Shown: positions 15,475 to 61,022, counted from the stretch's first letter. The stretch is 64,000 nucleotides of DNA from an uncultured Chloroflexia bacterium (GCA_963797095.1 CAWCNY010000007.1:1-64000); one strand, 5' to 3'. Translations and numbers: made by a program. Notes: generated from the letters alone by a model not told the origin.

Positions 15475-15627
15475 AAGTTCCAAGTTCCTGGTTCCTGGTT
15501 TTTGGTTCCTGGTTTTTGGTTCCTGGTTTTTGGTTCCTGGTTTTTGGTTCCTGGTTTTTGGTTCCTGGTTTTTGGTTCCTGGTTTCTGAAGGTTCATAGC
15601 AACTTAGGAACTTGGAACTTGGAACTA
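15475..15627. repeat. Heptamer array (GTTCCTG/GTTTTTG, 15 units) bracketed by 15-bp inverted arms
   Basis: AAGTTCCAAGTTCCT (15475-15489) and AGGAACTTGGAACTT (15606-15620); six exact 14-mers inside. Confidence 0.92.
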
Positions 15628-21030: not shown

Positions 21031-21888
21031 ATGAGCATACTTGTAGACAAGAATACGCGTTTGCTTGTGCAGGGTATCACCGGACGCGAGGGAGCGTTCC
21101 ATACTCAGCAGATGATCGAGTACGGCACTAACGTGGTAGGTGGCACAACGCCCGGCAAGGGCGGCACCGAGACGATGGGAGTGCCGATTTTTAATACGGT
21201 GAAGGAAGCAGTCAAGGAGACGGGGGCCAATGTTTCGATTATTTATGTGCCCGCGCCCTTCGCGCCCGATGCAATATTGGAAGCGTATGACGCGGAGATA
21301 CCGCTGATTGTGTGCATCACCGAGGGCATCCCCGTACTTGATATGATGAGGGTATGGGATGCGCTGAAGGGTGGCAAGAGCAGGTTGATAGGGCCGAACT
21401 GCCCCGGCCTGATCACGCCGGGAGAGGCGAAGGTGGGCATTATCCCTGGGTATATTTGCAAGCCCGGAGGGGTAGGGCTCGTGTCAAGGTCGGGCACTCT
21501 CACTTATGAGGTGATCTGGGCGCTGACCGAGGTGGGCATGGGCCAATCGACGGCGGTCGGGATCGGAGGCGATCCGATCAACGGCACCAACTTCATCGAC
21601 TGCCTGCGGATGTTCCAGGACGACCCTAACACTGAGAGGATCGTGATGATGGGGGAGATCGGCGGCGACGACGAGGAGAAAGCAGCCAGCTTTATCAAGG
21701 AGAATGTGACCAAGCCGATGGCGGGCTACATCGCCGGGCGAACCGCGCCGGAAGGGCGCAGAATGGGCCACGCGGGAGCCATCATATCGGGCGGCGCGGG
21801 CACAGCCCAGGGCAAGATCGACGCCCTGGAAGAGGCGGGTGTGAAGGTAGCACGCATTCCCACGCAGATACCGGGGTTGTTGAAATAG
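21031..21888 (+). CDS. sucD: Succinate--CoA ligase subunit alpha
   Basis: [43 protein letters not shown]. Confidence 0.97.
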
Positions 21889-21961
21889 TAGTCGATAGTC
21901 GGAGGACTGAGGTTCCTGGTTCCTGGTCCTCCGGCTACCGGCTACCGGCTACCGGCTACCG
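21886..21961 (+). repeat. Inverted heptamer bracket (TAGTCGG.. / (CCGGCTA)4) with GTTCCTG loop units
   Basis: TAGTCGGAGGAC (21896-21907) pairs with GTCCTCCGGCTA (21926-21937), using a G-U wobble on the sense strand. Confidence 0.88.
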
Positions 21962-38606: not shown

Positions 38607-38690
38607 AGGAGCGGCATTGAAGGAGCGGCATTGAAGGAGCGGCATTGAAGGAGCGGCATTGAAGGAGCGGCATTGAAGGAGCGGCATTGA
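38607..38690. repeat. 14-bp tandem repeat, six exact copies
   Basis: (AGGAGCGGCATTGA)6. Confidence 0.97.
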
Positions 38691-45664: not shown

Positions 45665-45685
45665 GGGAGGGAAAGGTTAGGGATG

Positions 45686-45743
45686 GCGAGTGGCGAGTGG
45701 CGAGTGGCGAGTGGCGAGTGGCGAGTAGCGAGTAGCGAGTAGC
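45686..45743. repeat. Heptamer array (GGCGAGT/AGCGAGT, about 8 units)
   Basis: Intergenic between rfaE2 and murJ; no inverted partner seen. Confidence 0.9.
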
Positions 45744-51598: not shown

Positions 51599-53254
51599 AT
51601 GAGCACTGATGCTGATGTAATAGTCGTAGGCGCTGGACTGGCGGGGCTGGTAGCTGCTGCCGAGTTGGTGGACGCCAACAAAAAGGTGATCCTGCTCGAC
51701 CAGGAGCCGGAGGCATCGCTGGGCGGGCAGGCGTTCTGGTCGTTCGGTGGGCTGTTCCTGGTGGACTCGCCGGAGCAAAGGCGGATGCGCATTCGCGACT
51801 CATACGCCCTTGCTGTGCAGGATTGGCTTGGCAGCGCGGGGTTCGACCGGGAGGAAGACTACTGGCCCAGGCGATGGGCGGAAGCGTACCTGGCTTTCGC
51901 GGCTGGCGAAAAGCGGTCGTGGTTGCATAAGCAGGGAGTTCGGTTCTTCCCTATCGTGGGGTGGGCCGAGCGCGGTGGGTATCTTGCCACGGGTCATGGC
52001 AACTCGGTGCCGCGCTTTCATATAACGTGGGGCACAGGGCCCGGCGTAATCGAGCCGTTTGTGAGGCGGGTGCGCGAAGGTGAACGGCGCGGGCTGGTAT
52101 CGTTGCCCTTTCGACACCGAGTAACCGGGCTGCTCGTGAACGGCGGCACGGTAGAAGGTGTACATGGCGATATCCTGGAGCCGAGCTATGTCGAGCGCGG
52201 GGTACGAAGCTCGCGGGAGGTAGCGGGGGAATTCACGGTGCGGGCGCAAGCCGTCGTTGTCACCTCCGGAGGGATCGGGGGCAATCACGAGTTGGTGCGC
52301 CACAACTGGCCGAAGAGGATGGGCGAGCCTCCGAAGAAGATGATCTCAGGGGTGCCCGACCACGTTGACGGGCGAATGCTCCAGGTAGTGCAGGAGAGCG
52401 GCGGGCGAGTGATCAACCCCGACCGGATGTGGCACTATCCTGAAGGTATAGTGAACTACGCGCCGATCTGGACCAATCACGGCATACGGATCTTGAGCGG
52501 GCCAAGCCCGTTGTGGCTGGACGCGCACGGCCATCGCCTGCCTGAGCCGTTGTTCCCGGGGTTCGATACCCTGGGTGCGCTGCGGCATATCAACGCTACA
52601 GGGTACGATCACTCGTGGTTCCTGCTCAACCAGCGCATCATTGAGCGCGAGTTTGCCCTCTCAGGGTCCGAACAGAACCCCGACCTGACGGGCCGTAGCG
52701 TCAAATTGATCCTGAGCCGTATCGGACCGGGCGCTCCTCCGCCGGTGGAGGCGTTTAAGGAGCGTGGGGTCGATTTCATAGTCAGGAAGACGCTGCCCGA
52801 ATTGGCGAGCGCTATGAACGAGCTAATAGGCGAAACCCTGATCGATCCCGCACAGTTGAGGCGGGAAGTGGCAGCGCGAGACCGGCAGATCGACAACGAG
52901 TTCGGCAAGGATGCCCAGGTGATAGCGATCAGAGGGGCGCGTGCCTATATTGGCGATAGACTGGTGAGGGTGGCGAAACCGCACCGCATACTCGATCCTG
53001 AAGCGGGGCCGCTGATCGCGGTGCGGCTATGGATTCTCACGCGCAAGACCCTGGGCGGGCTGGAAACCGACCTGTCGGCGCGGGTGCTTGGTGCGGATGG
53101 GCAGCCGCTACCGGGCCTATATGCCGCCGGAGAGGTGGCAGGCTTCGGGGGCGGTGGTATGCATGGCTACCGCGCCCTTGAAGGGACTTTCCTTGGCGGG
53201 TGTATTTTCTCAGGCCGCACGGCAGGGCGAGCAGTAGCCGGGGCTGTAATTTAG
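51599..53254 (+). CDS. FAD-binding dehydrogenase (KsdD-like / Rv0785-type)
   Basis: DVIVVGAGLAGL, LGGQAFWSFGGLF, GNSVPRFHITWGTG, LTRKTLGGL.TDL, GLYAAGE, LEGTFLGGC.FSGR. Confidence 0.9.
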   Translation: MSTDADVIVVGAGLAGLVAAAELVDANKKVILLDQEPEASLGGQAFWSFGGLFLVDSPEQRRMRIRDSYALAVQDWLGSAGFDREEDYWPRRWAEAYLAFAAGEKRSWLHKQGVRFFPIVGWAERGGYLATGHGNSVPRFHITWGTGPGVIEPFVRRVREGERRGLVSLPFRHRVTGLLVNGGTVEGVHGDILEPSYVERGVRSSREVAGEFTVRAQAVVVTSGGIGGNHELVRHNWPKRMGEPPKKMISGVPDHVDGRMLQVVQESGGRVINPDRMWHYPEGIVNYAPIWTNHGIRILSGPSPLWLDAHGHRLPEPLFPGFDTLGALRHINATGYDHSWFLLNQRIIEREFALSGSEQNPDLTGRSVKLILSRIGPGAPPPVEAFKERGVDFIVRKTLPELASAMNELIGETLIDPAQLRREVAARDRQIDNEFGKDAQVIAIRGARAYIGDRLVRVAKPHRILDPEAGPLIAVRLWILTRKTLGGLETDLSARVLGADGQPLPGLYAAGEVAGFGGGGMHGYRALEGTFLGGCIFSGRTAGRAVAGAVI

Positions 53255-54453
53255 CCCGCATCCCTGGGCATCGGCCCGGCGTTGCCTTCCATCCAGCTCA
53301 TCGGGTAATTCGGATCGTCGTATTCCTGCGCCCATTTGGTCAGCTTGAGGGGGCGGAACGTATCGACCATCACGGCCAATTCTTCGGTCGATTCTTTGCC
53401 TATGGATGCCTCGGCTGTGCCTGGGTGAGGCCCATGAGGGATGCCGTGCGGGTGTAGCGTGAAGGAGGCAACATCAATGCCCCGGCGGCTCATGAAGTTG
53501 CCGTTGACGTAGTAGATCACTTCTTCGCTGTCGATGTTGGAGTGGTTGTAAGGGGCAGGTATAGATAGTGGGTGATAGTCGTACTTGCGCGGCACGAAGG
53601 AGCAAACCACGAAGTTGTGCGCCTCGAAGGTCTGGTGAACGGGTGGGGGCTGGTGAACGCGGCCTGTGATCGGCTCAAAGTCTTCGATATTGAATATGTA
53701 GGGGTAGAGGTAGCCGTCCCAACCAACCACGTCGAGCGGGTGATGGTCGTAGTAATAAGAGGAGAGCATATCATTGGCGCGGATCAGCACCCGGTAAGGG
53801 CCTTTGCCCGCCTCGTCGCCCGTGATGGTGACAAGCTCTTCGGGCACGCGAAGGTCGCGCTCGCAATAGGGAGAGTTCTCAAGTAGCTGGCCGAAGCCAT
53901 TGCGGTAGCGTTTGGGGAACTGGATGTACTTGCCCTCGACCACGAGCCAGCGCTGTGGCTTGCCCTCGTCGGCTACGATGCGATAGATCGTGCCGTGGGG
54001 CAGGAAAACGTAGTCGCCTTCCCGGTAGGGGAGGGTGCCGAAATTGGTCTCGAAGCGGCCTGTGCCCTGATGGATGAAGTATAGCTCGTCGGTCTGGCCG
54101 TTCTTGTAGAAGTAGTCCATAGGCTCGGCGGGGAGCACGATGCCCAGGCGGCAATCGCTGTTGTACATGAGGATGCGTCTGCCTGAGATGGGATCGCCCT
54201 GGGGCTGTGCGGGCTTGGTGCGGGTATGGACGTGGCGCTGCACCGGAAGCTGCCACTCCTGCAACGGCTCGGCCTCGCACGGCTCTATGTTCACCACGCG
54301 CACGGGTGGGTGGTGGTGATAGAGCAGCGAGGAGTTGCCGCTGAAGCCCTCGGTGCCGAATAGCTCCTCGGTGTATAGCTCACCGTCAGGGCGGCGAAAC
54401 TGGGTGTGTCGCTTATGGGGTATTTTGCCTAGTTTGTGGTAGTAGGGCATCAT
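53251..54453 (-). CDS. hmgA: Homogentisate 1,2-dioxygenase
   Basis: IPHKRHTQFR, EGFSG.SSLLYH, HPLDVVGWDG, VHQPPPVHQTF, PYNHSNIDSEE, HPHGIPHGPHPG. Confidence 0.93.
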   Translation of the reverse strand: MMPYYHKLGKIPHKRHTQFRRPDGELYTEELFGTEGFSGNSSLLYHHHPPVRVVNIEPCEAEPLQEWQLPVQRHVHTRTKPAQPQGDPISGRRILMYNSDCRLGIVLPAEPMDYFYKNGQTDELYFIHQGTGRFETNFGTLPYREGDYVFLPHGTIYRIVADEGKPQRWLVVEGKYIQFPKRYRNGFGQLLENSPYCERDLRVPEELVTITGDEAGKGPYRVLIRANDMLSSYYYDHHPLDVVGWDGYLYPYIFNIEDFEPITGRVHQPPPVHQTFEAHNFVVCSFVPRKYDYHPLSIPAPYNHSNIDSEEVIYYVNGNFMSRRGIDVASFTLHPHGIPHGPHPGTAEASIGKESTEELAVMVDTFRPLKLTKWAQEYDDPNYPMSWMEGNAGPMPRDAG

Positions 54454-54529
54454 TGCACCTCCGGTTAGTTCTTTAATCTCAGCGCTTTATTTCATCCCAA
54501 ATCAACTATGCCTTTAAGGGTTATTATGC

Positions 54530-55567
54530 TCATGAGTGCGGGCCTCCCTCCGCAGTCAGCTTATTCCTTATCAGCCCCAGCTTTTCGATCTCCATCGCCA
54601 CTACATCGCCGGGTTTGAGCCAACCGCCGGTGTTTTCGGGGCGTAGCTCGAGGATGCAGCCTGTGCCTACTGTGCCCGATCCGAGCACATCGCCTGGGCG
54701 GAGCCACACATCGGTGGAGGCCCATTCGATCATCTGGGCGAAGGTGTGAGTGAGAGTATCCGCGTTGCCACGCGATAGCTCTTTGCCATTGACGCGAGCC
54801 ACCATTTCGAGACTGTAGCGAGTTTCTGCGGCTTCGCCCTTGCGGCGATCTTCCAACTCGTCGGGGGTGACTAGCCAGGGGCCGAGGGTGGTGGCGAAGT
54901 CTTTGCTCTTGGCGGGGCCCATGCTCAACTTCGCCTCGAAGTTGCGCCAGGTGTCGCGGGCCGACCAGTCGTTCATGATCAGGTAGCCTGCTATGTAGTC
55001 GTTGGCATCTTCGGCCGAGATGTCTTTGCCCGGTTTGCCGATTATGCAGGCGATCTCAAGCTCGAAATCGACTTCGTGGGAGCCGCGAGGGTAATCTACG
55101 TCGTCGTAGGGGCCGTAAACGCAGCCGGGGTTGGAGTAGTAGAAGACCGGGTGGTCGTACCACTCAAGGATCATTTCGAGGCCACGGAGGGCGCGGGCGC
55201 TCTTAACGTGCTGTTCGAAAGCGTAGAAGTCGCGGATGGTGCGAGGGAAGGGTAGAGGCGAGAGGAGCATAACATCGTCAACGGGTTGGGACGACTCCCA
55301 CAGCCCTTCCTCGTCGTCACAGACGGTTTCGGCGAGGCCGAGCACCCGCTCCATAGCAGCCTGCCCGCCATCAAGCAGTTCAAGCATCGTCATCGGCGGG
55401 CGCAATCCAGAATCACGAGAATGCTTCTTATTGAGCCAGTCGTGGGCGGCTTCGAGATTAAGAACGCGGGGCATCTCGCCAGGCAGGTAGATGCCTACGT
55501 GGGTGTCCTGCCCTTCGACGCGGTCGGGGGCGGTACGGTGGAGGTGGGAGAAGGTTACGAGTTTCAT
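54530..55567 (-). CDS. Fumarylacetoacetate hydrolase family protein
   Basis: RDFYAFEQHV, PVFYYSN, DFELEIA, NDWSARD, KSKDFAT.LGP, GSGTVG.GC.LE; lies between hppD and hmgA. Confidence 0.9.
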   Translation of the reverse strand: MKLVTFSHLHRTAPDRVEGQDTHVGIYLPGEMPRVLNLEAAHDWLNKKHSRDSGLRPPMTMLELLDGGQAAMERVLGLAETVCDDEEGLWESSQPVDDVMLLSPLPFPRTIRDFYAFEQHVKSARALRGLEMILEWYDHPVFYYSNPGCVYGPYDDVDYPRGSHEVDFELEIACIIGKPGKDISAEDANDYIAGYLIMNDWSARDTWRNFEAKLSMGPAKSKDFATTLGPWLVTPDELEDRRKGEAAETRYSLEMVARVNGKELSRGNADTLTHTFAQMIEWASTDVWLRPGDVLGSGTVGTGCILELRPENTGGWLKPGDVVAMEIEKLGLIRNKLTAEGGPHS

Positions 55568-55651
55568 GGTAGTCGGTAGTCGGTAGTCGGTAGTTCCTGG
55601 TTCCTGGTTCCTGGTTCCTGGTCACTCATTACAGGTCCGACTACCGACTGC
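55568..55651. repeat. Inverted heptamer bracket (GGTAGTC)3 ... CCGACTACCGACT with (GTTCCTG)4 interior
   Basis: 13-bp perfect stem between 55571-55583 and 55637-55649. Confidence 0.9.
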
Positions 55652-55658
55652 TATTCTC

Positions 55659-56846
55659 CTAAAGATTCCCTCGGAGTTCTTGCTCGCGCTCGATGGCTTC
55701 AAAGAGGGCGCGGAAATTGCCTTTGCCAAAGCCTCTGGAGCCGTGGCGCTCGATGATCTCGAAGAAGACGGTGGGGCGGTCCTGCACAGGCTTGCTGAAG
55801 ATCTGGAGCAGGTAGCCTTCGTCGTCGCGATCTACCAGAATGCCAAGATCCTCCAGCTTCTCCATGTCTTCCTTGATCTGGCCGACGCGGGTGGGGGCTT
55901 CCTCGTAATACTCGTGGGGCACGCGGAGGAACTCCATGCCGTTGGCTTTGAGGGTGGCGACCGTGCCCAGGATATCGCCTGTGATAAGGGCTATGTGCTG
56001 CACGCCGGGGGTGCGGTAGTAGTCGAGGTATTCCTCGATCTGCGACTTCTTCTTACCCTCGGCAGGCTCGTTGATGGGGAACTTGACACGCCCCGTGCCG
56101 TCCTGCATTACCTTGGACATAAGGGCCGAATATTCGGTCGAGATATCCTTATCCTCGAACGAGATCAACTGGCTGAAGCCCATAATGCGGGCGTAATATT
56201 CTACCCACTCGTTCATCTTGCCCAACTCGACGTTGAGCACCTGGTGGTCCACAGCCTTGACGCCTGTTGGCGTGCCGGGAATATCGCGCTTGTGGTAGCC
56301 GGGTGCGAATGTGCCGGTGTACTGGTCGCGATTGATAAGGGTGTGAATGGTTTCGCCGACGGTGGAGATGGCGGCCTCACGGATGCGGCCCTTTTCGCTT
56401 TCGACCCAGTGAGGCTCGGTGACGCCATGCGCGCCGCGCTCAAGGGCGGTCTTATAGGCCCAATCTACGTCGGGAACGCGCAGAGCTATATCCTTGACGC
56501 CGTCGCCATGCAGCTGAACATGGGCGGCGATAGCGCCTTCGGGCTGGAGGGGAGCGGTCAACACGAAGCGGATCTTGCCCTGTTCAAGAACGTAGGAAGC
56601 GCGGTCGCGCACCTTTGTCTCAGGACCGGCATAGGCGGTTATGCTGAAGCCGAGGACGGTGCGGTAGTAGTGGGCGGCCTGCTTGGCGTTGCCCACGTAA
56701 AACTCTATGTAATCTATGCCCTGGATAGGGAAAGGATCGGTACCGTTGGTCTTATGGCCGCTGGTGGCAGGGGTGGTATCGGCGTCCATTTCGGCAACGT
56801 CGCTTCCAGAGATTGTATCGAGTTCGATGGTCTCTTCGGGTTTCAT
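55659..56846 (-). CDS. hppD: 4-hydroxyphenylpyruvate dioxygenase
   Basis: DYIEFYVGNAKQAA.YY, HGDGVKDIAL, DHQV.NVE, YSALMSKV, PINEPA.GKKKSQIEEYL, GVQHIAL, GYLLQIF, FGKGNFRALFEAIEREQ; probable start ATG 56846 after GGAGG. Confidence 0.96.
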   Translation of the reverse strand: MKPEETIELDTISGSDVAEMDADTTPATSGHKTNGTDPFPIQGIDYIEFYVGNAKQAAHYYRTVLGFSITAYAGPETKVRDRASYVLEQGKIRFVLTAPLQPEGAIAAHVQLHGDGVKDIALRVPDVDWAYKTALERGAHGVTEPHWVESEKGRIREAAISTVGETIHTLINRDQYTGTFAPGYHKRDIPGTPTGVKAVDHQVLNVELGKMNEWVEYYARIMGFSQLISFEDKDISTEYSALMSKVMQDGTGRVKFPINEPAEGKKKSQIEEYLDYYRTPGVQHIALITGDILGTVATLKANGMEFLRVPHEYYEEAPTRVGQIKEDMEKLEDLGILVDRDDEGYLLQIFSKPVQDRPTVFFEIIERHGSRGFGKGNFRALFEAIEREQELRGNL

Positions 56847-56865
56847 TAATGCCTCCATTGGTTGA

Positions 56866-57293: not shown

Positions 57294-57869
57294 ATGATAA
57301 GCAAGAGGCGTATCGAGATCGTGGAATACGACCCGACATGGCCCGACACATTCGAAGAGCTCAAGGATGTGATTGAGAGGGCGGTGGGCGACCTGGCGCT
57401 GCGGATCGAGCACGTGGGAAGCACCTCGGTGCCAGGGCTGAGCGCCAAGCCGGTCATCGACCTGGATGTGGTGATGCCATCTTATGAAGCGCTGCCGGAA
57501 ATAGTGGCCCGCCTCAGTACGCTGGGGTATATGCACGAGGGCGACCTGGGCATCAAGGGGCGCGAGGCTTTCGCGCGCGAAGGGAGAGACGTGCCGCGAG
57601 ATGGCCGGGGCGGCGAGTGGCCGAGCCACCATCTTTATGTATGCCCGCCGGATGGTGAAGGATTGATAAGGCACCTGGCGTTTCGGGACTACATGCGGTC
57701 ACACCCGGAAGAGGTCGCGGCTTATGAAGCGGTGAAGCGACGCCTGGCCGAGCAGTATCCCTACGACGCGGAAGCGTATACGGAAGGCAAGACGGAGTAC
57801 ATCGAGGGGATATTGAGGCGGGCCGGCGTGGAGTTGGACCAAGCAGATAGAGGAGGGCAAGACAAATGA
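57294..57869 (+). CDS. GrpB (UPF0157) family protein
   Basis: IEIVEYDPTWP, IEHVGSTSVPGLSAKPVIDLD, HHLYVC, HLAFRDY.R, YTEGKT. Confidence 0.92.
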   Translation: MISKRRIEIVEYDPTWPDTFEELKDVIERAVGDLALRIEHVGSTSVPGLSAKPVIDLDVVMPSYEALPEIVARLSTLGYMHEGDLGIKGREAFAREGRDVPRDGRGGEWPSHHLYVCPPDGEGLIRHLAFRDYMRSHPEEVAAYEAVKRRLAEQYPYDAEAYTEGKTEYIEGILRRAGVELDQADRGGQDK

Positions 57870-59254
57870 ACGCAACAGAGAATACGGAACTTACAGGGGA
57901 TCAGCAGAAGTACCTGGGCGAGCTTAGCGAGTTCCTGAGAATACCGTCCGTGAGCACGCTCACAACGCATAAGGGTGATGTGAGGCGAGCAGCCGAGTGG
58001 GTGGCGAACAACCTGCGAAAATCTGGGATTGAGAACGTGCGCCTGATAGAGACGGAAAGCCCAATGGGCCACCCGCTGGTGTACGGCGACTGGCTGCACG
58101 CCGATGGGCATGGGCAGCCGACAGTCCTAATTTATGGGCATTTCGATGTGCAGCCTCCCGACCCGCTGAACGAATGGAAATCGCCGCCGTTCGAGCCGAC
58201 ACTAAGGGATGGGAACCTGTTCGCCAGGGGGTCGGCGGACGATAAGGGGCAGCTTTATTGCCACTTGAAGGCGGTAGAGAGACTGATGCAGGAGGGGGGC
58301 GGGAAACTCCCCGTGAACGTGCGCTTCTTGATCGAGGGGGAGGAAGAGGTTGGGGGCGAAGGCATTGAAGATTATGTAAAGCAGCATCCCGGTGAATTGA
58401 CGTGCGATGCCGTGCTGATCAGCGACAATTCGATGTTCTCAGATGGGTTGCCCGCGCTGGATGTGGGGTTGAGGGGGATGGTGTACACGGAGATCACGGT
58501 AAGGGGGGCCGAGCACGACCTACATTCGGGGATGTACGGCGGAGTGGCTCCCAACGCGATCAATGTGTTGTGCCATATCATCGCGCAGTTGAAGGACCTG
58601 GACGGGGTGATACAGGTGCCGGGTTACTACGACGACGTGCAGGAACTGACCGCCGAGCAACGGGCAAGCTGGGGCGCGCTGCCTTTCGATGAGGAGGAGT
58701 TGCGCACGCACGAGATAGGGGCGAAGGCTCTGGCGGGCGAGACTGGGTATTCGGCGCTGGAGAGGATTTGGGCAAGGCCCACCCTCGATGCGAACGGCAT
58801 TATCGGGGGTTTCACAGGCGAGGGCGCGAAGACGGTGATCCCGGCAGTGGCGAAGGGCAAGGTGAGCATGAGACTGGTGCCGAACCAGGACCCGAACAAG
58901 ATTTGGGCGAGTTTCAAGGAGTACGTGGAGAGCCTTTGCCCATCTTATGCCGAGGTAGATGTGCAGTACATACATGGAGCAGATCCGGTGCTGCTGCCGA
59001 CCAACTCGGTCTATATGAAGGCCGCTGTGGAGGCATTGAGAGAGGTGTTCGGGAAGGAGCCTGTGCTGATGCGGTCTGGTGGGTCCATACCAATCGTGTC
59101 ACTGTTCAGCAGTGTGCTGAACGCCCCAAGCGTCCTGATGGGCTTCGGGCTGCCCGACGACAACCTCCACGCGCCGAATGAGAAGATGAAGCTGGCGAAT
59201 GTGTTTGGGGGGATCGAGGCGTCGGTGCGGTATTTGAAGCTGCTTCGCCGGTAG
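57866..59254 (+). CDS. M20 family dipeptidase (ArgE/DapE-like)
   Basis: FLRIPSVS, YGHFDVQP, ARGSADDKGQ, EGEEEVG, DLHSG.YGG, GGSIP, HAPNEK. Confidence 0.93.
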   Translation: MNATENTELTGDQQKYLGELSEFLRIPSVSTLTTHKGDVRRAAEWVANNLRKSGIENVRLIETESPMGHPLVYGDWLHADGHGQPTVLIYGHFDVQPPDPLNEWKSPPFEPTLRDGNLFARGSADDKGQLYCHLKAVERLMQEGGGKLPVNVRFLIEGEEEVGGEGIEDYVKQHPGELTCDAVLISDNSMFSDGLPALDVGLRGMVYTEITVRGAEHDLHSGMYGGVAPNAINVLCHIIAQLKDLDGVIQVPGYYDDVQELTAEQRASWGALPFDEEELRTHEIGAKALAGETGYSALERIWARPTLDANGIIGGFTGEGAKTVIPAVAKGKVSMRLVPNQDPNKIWASFKEYVESLCPSYAEVDVQYIHGADPVLLPTNSVYMKAAVEALREVFGKEPVLMRSGGSIPIVSLFSSVLNAPSVLMGFGLPDDNLHAPNEKMKLANVFGGIEASVRYLKLLRR

Positions 59255-59808
59255 CCGGTAGCCGGTAGCCGGTAGCCGGAGGACGATGGAGCATGATTGT
59301 GATTATTTGAGGAGGCACTGATGGCTGGACAAACTTATAGAGATTTGGAAGTTTGGCAGAAAAGTATGGACCTCGTAGTGCAGATATATGAGGTATCCAA
59401 ACTGTTCCCTAAAGATGAGCAATTCGGGTTGACAAACCAGATCCGTCGGGCCGCTGTGTCTATACCGGCAAACATTGCAGAAGGGCAGGGAAGATTGCAC
59501 GAAGGGGATTTCGTTCGCTTTCTTTCGATTGCTGGAGGCTCACTTACTGAAACTGAAACACATCTATTGATCGCAATTCGCTTAACTTGTGTTAGGAAGG
59601 AACAGGTCAGGAAAGCCTGGGAACTGGCACAGCAGGTAGGCCATATGCTGAACGGCCTTATCAGAAGTAAGAGAAGCTATATCGAAGGTAATGGCAAAAT
59701 CTCGGAAACCGCCGCACCATCTAGGAGCGATCACGATCCTGACCAGGAATACCCTCTATCCGGTAGCGACCTGTGAAACCGGCTACCGGCTACCGGCTAC
59801 CGGCTACC
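59250..59808. repeat. Perfect 30-bp inverted heptamer arms flanking the four-helix-bundle gene
   Basis: GG(TAGCCGG)4 at 59250-59279 is the exact reverse complement of (CCGGCTA)4CC at 59779-59808. Confidence 0.95.
59321..59776 (+). CDS. Four helix bundle protein (23S rRNA-IVP / TIGR02436-type family)
   Basis: YRDLEVWQKSMDL...IY......FPKDEQFGLTNQIRRAAVSIPANIAEG..R.....F.RFL.IA.GSL.E.ET.L; SD GAGGAGG. Confidence 0.93.
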   Translation: MAGQTYRDLEVWQKSMDLVVQIYEVSKLFPKDEQFGLTNQIRRAAVSIPANIAEGQGRLHEGDFVRFLSIAGGSLTETETHLLIAIRLTCVRKEQVRKAWELAQQVGHMLNGLIRSKRSYIEGNGKISETAAPSRSDHDPDQEYPLSGSDL

Positions 59809-60951
59809 AGTCCCCTGGCGGGCATCCTCGTCGCCGACTTCTCTCGCGTGCTGGCGGGGCCTTACTGCACTATGATGATGGGCGATTTGGGGGCAGACGT
59901 TATCAAAGTGGAGTCGCCTGAGGGGGATGATACGCGCAAGTGGGGGCCGCCTTACCAGGGAGGCGAGTCGGCTTATTATTTGGCGTGCAACAGGAACAAG
60001 CGAAGTGTGGTGCTGGACCTGAGGAGTGCACAAGGACTCGGGTGGGCGCGCAGGCTGGCCTTGCGGAGCGATGTGCTGGTCGAGAACTTCCGGCTGGGGG
60101 CAATGGAAGAGTGGGGGCTGGGGCACGAACAGCTAGCGAAAGAGAACCCAGGGTTGATCTACTGCTCTATTTCGGGTTACGGGCGCACGGGGCCGAACGC
60201 CGACCTGCCCGGATACGATTATGTGATCCAGGGAGCGGGCGGGATCATGAGCATCACGGGGGAGGCAGATGGGCCACCCATGAAGATTGGCGTGGCAATC
60301 GTGGACCTGACGGCGGGGATGTTCGCGCTTTCGAGTATCCTGGCGGCGTTGCGGGTGCGGGACGCGACAGGCAAGGGGCAGAAGATAGACATCTCGCTGT
60401 TCGATTCGCACCTGGCCTGGCTCGCCAATGTAGGGGGCGGTTATTTGGTGTCGGGGGAGACGCCTGGGAGATATGGCAGCGGACACGCCAATATTGTGCC
60501 TTACCAGACGTTCCGTGCGGAGGACGGGTGGCTGGTGGTGACGGTGGGGAACGACAAGCAGTGGGCACGTATGTGCAACGCCGTGGAGAGACCCGACCTG
60601 TTGGCCGATGAGAGGTGGGCAACCAACGAAGCGCGCGTCCGCAATCGGGGGATGCTCGTTCCAATTCTGGAGGAATTGTTCGCGGGCAGAAATGTGGATG
60701 AGTGGCTGGCGCTGCTGAAAGAGTGCGAAGTGCCGGCAGGGCGCGTGAACACGGTGGGTCAGGCGCTGAACGACCCGCAGACGATAGAACGCGGGATGGT
60801 GCAGGAGGTCGAGCACCCTGGGATCGGCCCATTGCGGATGGTGGCATCGCCGCTCCATTTGCAGGATACGCCTCCGACCATCAGGCGACACCCGCCAATG
60901 CTGGGGGAGCACACCGAGGAAGTGCTGGGGTGGTTGGCGAGTGACGAGTGA
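59773..60951 (+). CDS. CaiB/BaiF family III CoA-transferase
   Basis: PLAGI.V.DFSRVLAGPYCT, DLGADVIKVE, NRNKRS, DVLVENFR, YCSISGYG, GYD, VD...G; the N-terminal ATGYRLPAT is encoded by the repeat arm. Confidence 0.92.
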   Translation: MKPATGYRLPATSPLAGILVADFSRVLAGPYCTMMMGDLGADVIKVESPEGDDTRKWGPPYQGGESAYYLACNRNKRSVVLDLRSAQGLGWARRLALRSDVLVENFRLGAMEEWGLGHEQLAKENPGLIYCSISGYGRTGPNADLPGYDYVIQGAGGIMSITGEADGPPMKIGVAIVDLTAGMFALSSILAALRVRDATGKGQKIDISLFDSHLAWLANVGGGYLVSGETPGRYGSGHANIVPYQTFRAEDGWLVVTVGNDKQWARMCNAVERPDLLADERWATNEARVRNRGMLVPILEELFAGRNVDEWLALLKECEVPAGRVNTVGQALNDPQTIERGMVQEVEHPGIGPLRMVASPLHLQDTPPTIRRHPPMLGEHTEEVLGWLASDE

Positions 60952-61022
60952 CGAGTGGCGAGTGACGAGCATTAGATACGCAGCACGCAGCACGCAGCAC
61001 GCAGCACGCAGTACGCAGTACG
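60937..61022. repeat. Heptamer arrays (G[A/G]CGAGT)n and (ACGCAG[C/T])6
   Basis: The first array supplies the CoA-transferase stop (…ASDE*); the second follows it. Confidence 0.9.

Follow-up and report, generated by a model that had tools for sequence, protein, structure and literature searches.

Inverted heptamer arrays enclosing a four-helix-bundle gene in an operon of an uncultured Chloroflexia bacterium, a candidate mobile cassette

The dipeptidase-CoA-transferase locus

The DNA examined here (the window) is a stretch of 64,000 nucleotides from the genome of an uncultured Chloroflexia bacterium (G000). A gene for a four-helix-bundle (FHB) protein was identified on it between a dipeptidase gene and a CoA-transferase gene, enclosed within the operon by a pair of inverted heptamer arrays (arms), as the first-pass annotation had described. 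The features of this locus, along with two heptamer hairpins of the window that hold no such gene (termed empty), are as follows:

57866..59254, + strand: upstream host gene, an M20-family dipeptidase (NF006053 score over cut-off), with its stop codon inside the left arm
59247..59279, + strand: left arm, a G-rich heptamer array (GGTAGCC-type, 4.7 units), with the perfect inverted partner of the right arm at 59250-59279; a stop in every frame
59280..59320, + strand: leader, with a GGAGGAC cap beside the arm and a Shine-Dalgarno-like GAGGAGG ahead of the FHB ATG
59321..59776, + strand: FHB gene (TIGR02436 / PF05635), 151 aa, 47.8% GC, under purifying selection relative to its orthologue in genome G017
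59778..59808, + strand: right arm, a C-rich heptamer array (CCGGCTA-type, 4.4 units), with the perfect inverted partner of the left arm at 59779-59808; likely translated as the CoA-transferase N-terminus
59773..60951, + strand: downstream host gene, a family III CoA-transferase (PF02515), whose GTG overlaps the FHB stop
21886..21961, + strand: empty heptamer hairpin directly after the stop codon at 21888, with a right arm of GGTAGCC type as at the FHB locus and a variant left arm
55568..55651, - strand: empty heptamer hairpin with GGTAGTC-type arms and a GTTCCTG array in its loop, between hppD-like and FAA-hydrolase genes

Genes were called with a purpose-made hexamer ORF caller, from which small errors are expected (the start of a second FHB gene, on contig C6, was set by hand).

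Each arm (59250-59279 and 59779-59808) spans 30 nt; the two are 100% complementary, are separated by 499 nt and were confirmed as exact reverse complements on recheck. The dipeptidase stop codon (TAG, 59252-59254) lies within the left array as had been noted, with the arm starting 2 nt before this codon and not inside it. The right array begins 2 nt beyond the FHB stop codon (TGA, 59774-59776), in agreement with the earlier description. The AT-richness reported for the enclosed DNA was also borne out, its GC content being 47.5% compared to 59.1% for the dipeptidase and 62.5% for the CoA-transferase, and the FHB ORF was found to be AT-richer than 99.6% of 4430 called genes. The right arm is free of stop codons in all three frames, while the left arm has a stop in each, and the GTG at 59773 that overlaps the FHB TGA is in frame with the CoA-transferase. 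This GTG is probably the start codon in use, in which case the right arm would encode approximately ten N-terminal residues. A consensus scan identified no sigma-70-like promoter ahead of the FHB gene.

The hairpin at 21886-21961 had been described as having the same arms as the FHB locus; this applies to the right arm, which shares the unit, while the left arm is a TAGTCGA/TAGTCGG variant ending in the same GGAGGAC. The arms at 55568-55651 are, as stated, a variant, here GGTAGTC with a partner array of two units.

The FHB protein scored 129.3 bits against the TIGR02436 profile (cut-off 24) and 136.2 bits against PF05635 (cut-off 33.8), and clearly matches XCC0516, a solved pentamer (PDB 2gsc; E 3e-24, five chains). 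Its closest relative among named records is from the class Chloroflexia. An AlphaFold model from the sequence alone was of low quality (pLDDT 46.6) and played no part in the conclusions. Comparison with the orthologue of G017 gave a dN/dS of approximately 0.04-0.055, with dS near saturation, indicating that the protein is kept.

Arrays and enclosed genes in this genome, its relatives and other phyla

Exact tandem arrays of at least 21 nt were found in the genome 409 times with period 7, 61 times with period 6 and 7 times with period 8, and a degenerate score identified 695 heptamer arrays in 6 Mb, with 624 of these at or between gene ends. Such a strong and mostly intergenic excess of period 7 is characteristic of intergenic heptamer repeats of the STRR type. 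As heptamer arrays abound across the genome, arms alone are not special. The GGTAGCC-type unit of the FHB locus accounts for 17 of the 409 exact arrays; the commonest units are ACGAGTG (90 arrays) and ACCGACT (71), and a cognate FHB gene for either was not identified in the 93%-complete assembly. G-rich arrays lie 20 nt or less from a stop codon in 162 of 196 cases, and arrays also precede starts.

A gene was then scored as enclosed if both of its flanks have period 7 and form an inverted match scoring at least 14. Nine of 5019 called genes possess matched arms of this kind and both FHB genes of the genome are included (2/2, compared to 7/5017 other called genes; Fisher p 3e-6), that at 59321-59776 ranking first. 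Chance would not account for this pairing, despite the abundance of arrays. Five of the non-FHB cases were read, three of which proved to be a full hairpin in the flanking spacer and not true enclosure. The second FHB gene, on contig C6 between mraY-like and murD-like genes, has arms of a different unit (GATTTTG/CAAAATC) and was missed by tblastn with the first as query, the two genes being distant from one another.

Arms of GATTTTG/CAAAATC also occur in both 23S rRNA gene copies of the genome, on an ORF-less insert of approximately 110 nt at Rfam position 1218 that lacks an FHB gene and is predicted to form a single hairpin (z -3.87). This position is presumably that of helix 45, the classical helix for intervening sequences (IVS). 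The region was located in 11 of 16 related 23S loci, three being extended with heptamer-like arms (G000, G014 and G003) and eight being short (including that of the unpublished G021).

Of the 219 co-directional spacers that contain two arrays, 71 have matched inverted arms (11% in a swap control), with the G-rich arm first in 60 of the 71. A strand preference of the G-rich arm after stop codons was considered and dropped, given that the order of G-arm then C-arm is identical on both strands; the G-rich arm is also first in convergent (10/13) and divergent (7/7) spacers.

Among relatives, TIGR02436 gave 122 rows in 41 genomes. The set analysed comprised 88 loci of published genomes, namely both G000 loci, the best match of each genome and 60 further loci, mostly full-length (three loci of unpublished genomes were excluded); 83 of them had enough flank. 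Inverted arms (match of at least 14) were found at 73 of these 83 loci of the same order, 68 having period 7 on both sides, compared to 17/400 (4%) when flanks of different loci were paired as a control. From other phyla 80 loci were returned, leaving 78 after two duplicates were dropped; 71 were scored, and 38 of these passed the arm threshold (both flanks having period 7 in 26; control 3/400, under 1%). An enrichment of TIGR02436/PF05635 genes for inverted arms, which the first-pass annotation had suggested testing for, is thus seen in both sets, with 10/83 and 33/71 loci below the threshold. The 5' arm is the G-rich one in 67/73 and 35/38 armed loci, respectively. Co-orientation of the upstream gene with the FHB gene was seen in 69 of 71 called cases, against a baseline of 71%. 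In 56 of 69 the left arm begins between -8 and +12 nt from the upstream stop. Selection of the arms as three-frame stop cassettes was rejected as a candidate, with stops in 39/79 left and 24/79 right units compared to 43% and 26% in shuffled ones.

Matches to TIGR02436 within this one order range from 0 to 12 per genome, at scattered sites. Genomes were classed as array-rich by an author-set threshold of at least 10 matches to one degenerate pattern, which covers only some units. On this basis 35 of 61 genomes have both arrays and FHB genes, 18 have neither, three have arrays only (these being 66-79% complete) and five have FHB genes only; without four unpublished genomes the counts are 32, 18, 2 and 5. 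FHB genes are therefore present in 35/38 array-rich and 5/23 array-poor genomes, the kin among these not being independent.

Filled and empty junctions and the weighing of explanations

Of 24 CoA-transferase loci in the genus, the dipeptidase gene adjoins in four (G000, G017, G014 and G015). Filled and empty alleles, which the first-pass annotation had proposed to compare, are both present: the junction holds an FHB gene in G000 and G017 and is without one in the other two. The G017 orthologue is also armed (GGTAGTC/GACTACC), with both arms changed relative to G000, a left arm of 75 nt and a right arm still in frame. The junction of G015 is 121 nt with inverted GATAAGT arrays, and that of G014 is 318 nt with mixed arrays. 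In a CoA-transferase tree of 19 rows (omitting five of the 24 loci: three from unpublished genomes, one broken and one a fragment), the branching among G000, G017 and the pair G014 and G015 is not separated, giving no order of gain and loss. At mraY-murD, an FHB gene is present in one (G000) of 22 junctions with mraY located (a count that includes the unpublished G016), and G009, G019 and G017 have empty GATTTT-type hairpins there from the same stop as the G000 FHB cassette. By parsimony this empty hairpin would be an insertion target, as a single gain into a cognate hairpin is preferable to many losses. Empty brackets had been proposed to be derivatives or scars of the cassette; this is one possible direction, but they need not be scars.

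Sixty distinct units were identified among 79 arms. At non-orthologous sites unit similarity rises with protein identity (Mantel rho 0.28, 0/999 permutations, 66 proteins); pairs matching in at least 6/7 unit bases make up 1-3% below 50% protein identity, 28% at 60-70% and 53% at 70-80%, though this matching may be due in part to host relatedness. Loci L005 and L008 share a 501-nt stretch of 82% identity that reaches from one arm to the other, between unrelated host flanks. No near-identical recent copies were found, the closest non-orthologous pair being 82% identical, nor does this genome hold dispersed near-identical copies, its two distant FHB genes having different arm units. The arms have the form of the terminal inverted repeats of an IS or MITE. 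Neither a transposase nor an integrase was found inside the arm-gene-arm unit (a search of the genome for the Y1 family alone gave four transposase matches elsewhere), and visual inspection of the 20 nt beyond either arm showed no target duplication, there being no clean pre-insertion allele to compare. Family-wide enclosure, the matching of unit to protein, homology that ends at the arms and the filled and empty alleles support the view that gene and arms behave as a unit. This part of the initial proposal of an autonomous unit was retained, whereas the autonomy itself found no support.

The arms had further been proposed to form a stem that loops out the gene. A fold of the whole cassette is indeed predicted to pair the 30-bp arms (z -4.85; 0/20 shuffles as stable), although any inverted repeat folds. 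If the arms were kept for transcript pairing, as an IVS in mRNA, RNase III would excise the loop with the FHB gene, so that the operon mRNA is divided and its two halves are tuned. The genome has an RNase III gene, FHB genes are in strict sense orientation, an armed insert exists in its own 23S rRNA and, in Coxiella, RNase III cuts a 23S IVS with this layout (PMC4990558). Nothing indicated, however, that pairing is selected for in the mRNA. Arm mismatches showed no G-U excess, with 36 G-U compared to 46 A-C in relatives, 20 to 27 in other phyla and 11 to 34 in empty operon hairpins (p 0.0008, opposite to the direction of RNA pairing), a test that is weak and not decisive because the count of within-array variants is flat (14 to 11). 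The stronger duplex was the sense one in 35 and the antisense one in 37 of 73 arm pairs in relatives (11 and 22 of 38 in other phyla), and translation of the right arm, which is likely, would open the stem. Retention of the arms for this purpose is considered unlikely. The arms look to owe their exactness to a process that is neutral to strand, for instance arm-to-arm copying or recent insertion. RNase III may still cut the stem in the transcript, by analogy with Coxiella, although this need not be what preserves the arms. Two sets of DNA contigs at low coverage contained no joints, which has no bearing on excision as neither spans the segment.

The FHB protein could instead be a post-transcriptional regulator of the host that acts on gene-end arrays, with its own arms being autoregulatory and the gene moving only by ordinary horizontal transfer. 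The proximity of arrays to stop codons (162/196 G-rich arrays within 20 nt) and their presence ahead of starts, the purifying selection on the protein, the co-occurrence of arrays with FHB genes and the regulatory role proposed for TAACTGA arrays (PMC4679880) are in keeping with this. It fits poorly with the scatter of FHB sites and copy numbers within one order, with arrays that switch unit or vanish at orthologous junctions, with dominant units that have no cognate FHB gene in the genome and with homology limits that coincide with the arms, and such a regulon appears quite improbable. Chance placement of an AT-rich foreign gene between two like heptamer microsatellites, common in the spacers of this lineage, was already disfavoured and is judged very improbable. 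Some 700 degenerate arrays in 6 Mb, the seven non-FHB genes that are also scored as enclosed and the heptamer excess with inverted pairs known from Xanthomonas (PMC4692102) would allow for it, but the enclosure of 2/2 FHB genes compared to 7/5017 others, of which three of the five read are spacer hairpins, the low swap controls (4% and under 1%) and the joint switch of unit in both arms at an orthologous site argue against it.

On balance, the 560-bp segment is probably a copy of a widespread, sense-oriented arm-gene-arm cassette situated at a host stop codon, which likely moves between sites as a selfish element and whose Avd-like protein likely binds its own arms. Pointing to this are the enclosure of both FHB genes and the arms at 73/83 and 38/71 loci, units that track the protein at non-orthologous sites together with the homology of L005 and L008 that ends at the arms, co-orientation (69/71) and stop adjacency (56/69), filled and empty alleles at two junctions, the low dN/dS, the co-occurrence with arrays (35/38 compared to 5/23) and the armed 23S insert. 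Heptamers in the Coxiella IVS stem (PMC4990558) and the S23-like, RNA-binding pentamer of Avd (10.1101/2023.10.23.563531) are also consistent with it. Speaking against the cassette are the lack of near-identical recent copies, of a transposase or integrase in the unit and of a target duplication by eye, the ACGAGTG and ACCGACT units without a cognate FHB gene in the 93%-complete assembly, the 10/83 and 33/71 loci that miss the arm threshold, five array-poor genomes with FHB genes and three array-rich ones (all under 80% complete) without, the possible share of host kinship in the unit-protein matching, and a dipeptidase-CoA-transferase junction that does not order gain and loss.

Proposed mechanism and relation to known systems

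The cassette would be promoterless and expressed from the host operon. The left arm would terminate translation of the gene before it, and coupling between the FHB stop and the CoA-transferase start would let the operon survive insertion. The FHB protein may form a pentameric ring like those of XCC0516 and Avd that holds single-stranded arm repeats, and this ring could promote an arm-directed homing in which the loop is copied into hairpins that have the cognate unit, the chemistry of copying being left to host enzymes. ORF-less hairpins (approximately 70 in operon spacers and one in the 23S rRNA) would be empty state, target and remnant alike. A broader proposal, put forward tentatively and held to be possible but rather doubtful, is that TIGR02436 is the trans-acting factor of a class of transposase-free mobile elements, its ring reading the cognate heptamer, directing the gene to hairpins of matching unit, both at stop codons and in rRNA helix 45, and leaving or seeding empty hairpins. 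If so, one element would explain TIGR02436, both ORF-bearing and ORF-less rRNA IVS, and the excess of 7-bp repeats in bacterial genomes, so that three questions hitherto apart would be joined (what the S23p protein is, where 23S IVS come from and why heptamers are in excess in bacteria). A large family without known function would also gain a specific and cheaply testable candidate ligand, namely its own heptamer. This locus lends itself well to testing, with its perfectly matched 30-bp arms, an orthologue in which both arms have another unit, two relatives with empty alleles and the armed 23S insert of its own genome.

In the literature searched, to which subscription journals and supplements did not belong, an operon-borne, unit-matched and apparently mobile FHB cassette was not found, and the name TIGR02436 gave no match. 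The parts are known separately, as IVS with S23p and heptamers, as intergenic heptamer excess (PMC4692102, PMC4679880) and as MITE-like repeats (PMC2229807). The family assignment and the links to IVS and Avd given in the first-pass annotation are upheld by the profile scores and by what is described for the Coxiella IVS (PMC4990558) and for Avd, a pentamer that resembles S23 proteins and binds RNA (10.1101/2023.10.23.563531).

To the Avd of diversity-generating retroelements (DGR) the FHB protein is only a distant sequence match (E 1e-6, 2e-5), scoring below cut-off with the Avd models NF033474 (28.7 compared to 80) and PF22296 (25.3 compared to 40). Unlike DGR Avd, its neighbours are metabolic genes; no reverse transcriptase (RT) with template repeat was found beside it, and none of the 24 PF00078 matches of the genome lies on contig C7. 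A DGR or dedicated RT partner was rejected, none being adjacent and the two best-scoring RTs appearing group II intron-like (2/8 RT loci read). The protein falls outside Avd, and the cassette, of which the genome holds no near-identical dispersed copies, does not look like a classical IS. With Correia/NEMIS and ERIC elements it shares terminal inverted repeats, co-transcription and possible ORF fusion, and effects of RNase III or RNase E on mRNA have been proposed for these (PMC2229807). Their terminal inverted repeats are fixed in sequence, with TA ends, a duplicated target and helpers of IS type (PMC2229807). Here the arms consist of tandem heptamers in many different units, a duplication was not seen, and the gene of the full form is not a transposase gene.

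The 7-bp repeats of Xanthomonas and Nostoc (PMC4692102) and of Beggiatoaceae (PMC4679880) are likewise intergenic, occur in inverted pairs and lie beside gene ends. They differ from the present arrays, which comprise 60 units that track the enclosed protein, and a link to a four-helix-bundle gene was not found in the available parts of either source.

The closest likeness is to the S23p IVS of Coxiella burnetii in helix 45, which has an S23p ORF, a 28-bp terminal stem with GACAGAT heptamers of variable number, and a cut by RNase III (PMC4990558). The two have in common the protein family, a size of approximately 0.45-0.55 kb, inverted termini of approximately 28-30 bp and tandem heptamers, which at the 5' end of the Coxiella IVS vary in number (PMC4990558). 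ORF-bearing 23S IVS are also cited for Leptospira, Brucella and Xanthomonas (PMC4990558), and PF05635 ORFs of CPR bacteria are spread over several rRNA insertion sites (10.1101/2024.02.27.582315). In contrast to the Coxiella IVS, the cassette lies in a protein-coding operon with a strong RBS, has an arm that is likely translated and is at most a candidate for excision; its protein is under purifying selection, whereas the Coxiella ORF is reported as decaying (PMC4990558). With inverted repeats that enclose a PF05635 ORF, flanked by dipeptidase and CoA-transferase genes and not by rRNA, the cassette is IVS-like in layout and outside the IVS class by location.

Further heptamer-armed elements of the genome

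Among the contigs of the source genome, a second four-helix-bundle gene cassette was identified in a cell-wall operon, between mraY and murD, and an insert bounded by heptamer arms and devoid of an ORF was found in the 23S rRNA gene, with a further copy on contig C1.
C6, 697641-698120 (locus L002): mraY-murD four-helix-bundle cassette
C3, 465717-465825 (locus L058, 2833-2941): insert in the 23S rRNA gene

The right arm of the mraY-murD cassette likely encodes the N-terminus of the murD-like gene. The heptamer of this cassette was identical to that of the 23S insert arms, and the rRNA carrying the insert may be fragmented. Additional, smaller inserts of this 23S rRNA were situated close to Rfam positions 283, 312, 582 and 1084.

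Arrays in the window and the CoA-transferase upstream region

More arrays with a period of 7 or 14 were identified in the window, including the four listed below. The window also contains a cluster for tyrosine catabolism.
15489-15585, 38607-38690, 45684-45740 and 60938-61022: arrays
53251-56858, reverse strand: hppD-like, FAA-hydrolase and, presumably, homogentisate dioxygenase genes

Several of these arrays were located at stop codons, and composite arrays displayed an ordered switch of unit.

A conserved promoter-like motif (TTGACT-N17-CATACT) was found 5' of the CoA-transferase in most members of the genus (loci L037-L052), often immediately 3' of a C-rich heptamer array. It was missing upstream of this gene in the four-genome clade in which the dipeptidase lies in front.

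Reverse transcriptases, possibly duplicated hairpins and a similar enclosure

Reverse-transcriptase matches in the source genome numbered 24 (contigs C1, C2, C3 and C5), several of them arranged in nested pairs approximately 1.3 kb apart. The two whose sequences were inspected resemble group II intron proteins, and one of these (L230) carries a frameshift.

At two four-helix-bundle loci, L025 and L028, long repeats flank the gene on both sides (scores 64 and 54). As either flank is a complete hairpin by itself, this suggests that insertion was accompanied by duplication of the whole hairpin.

An ACGAGTG pair encloses a different gene.
C2, 1357738-1358649, reverse strand: 303-aa gene

Its G-rich arm comes first and its C-rich arm second, as in the four-helix-bundle cassette, but a short partner arm is also present in its upstream spacer.
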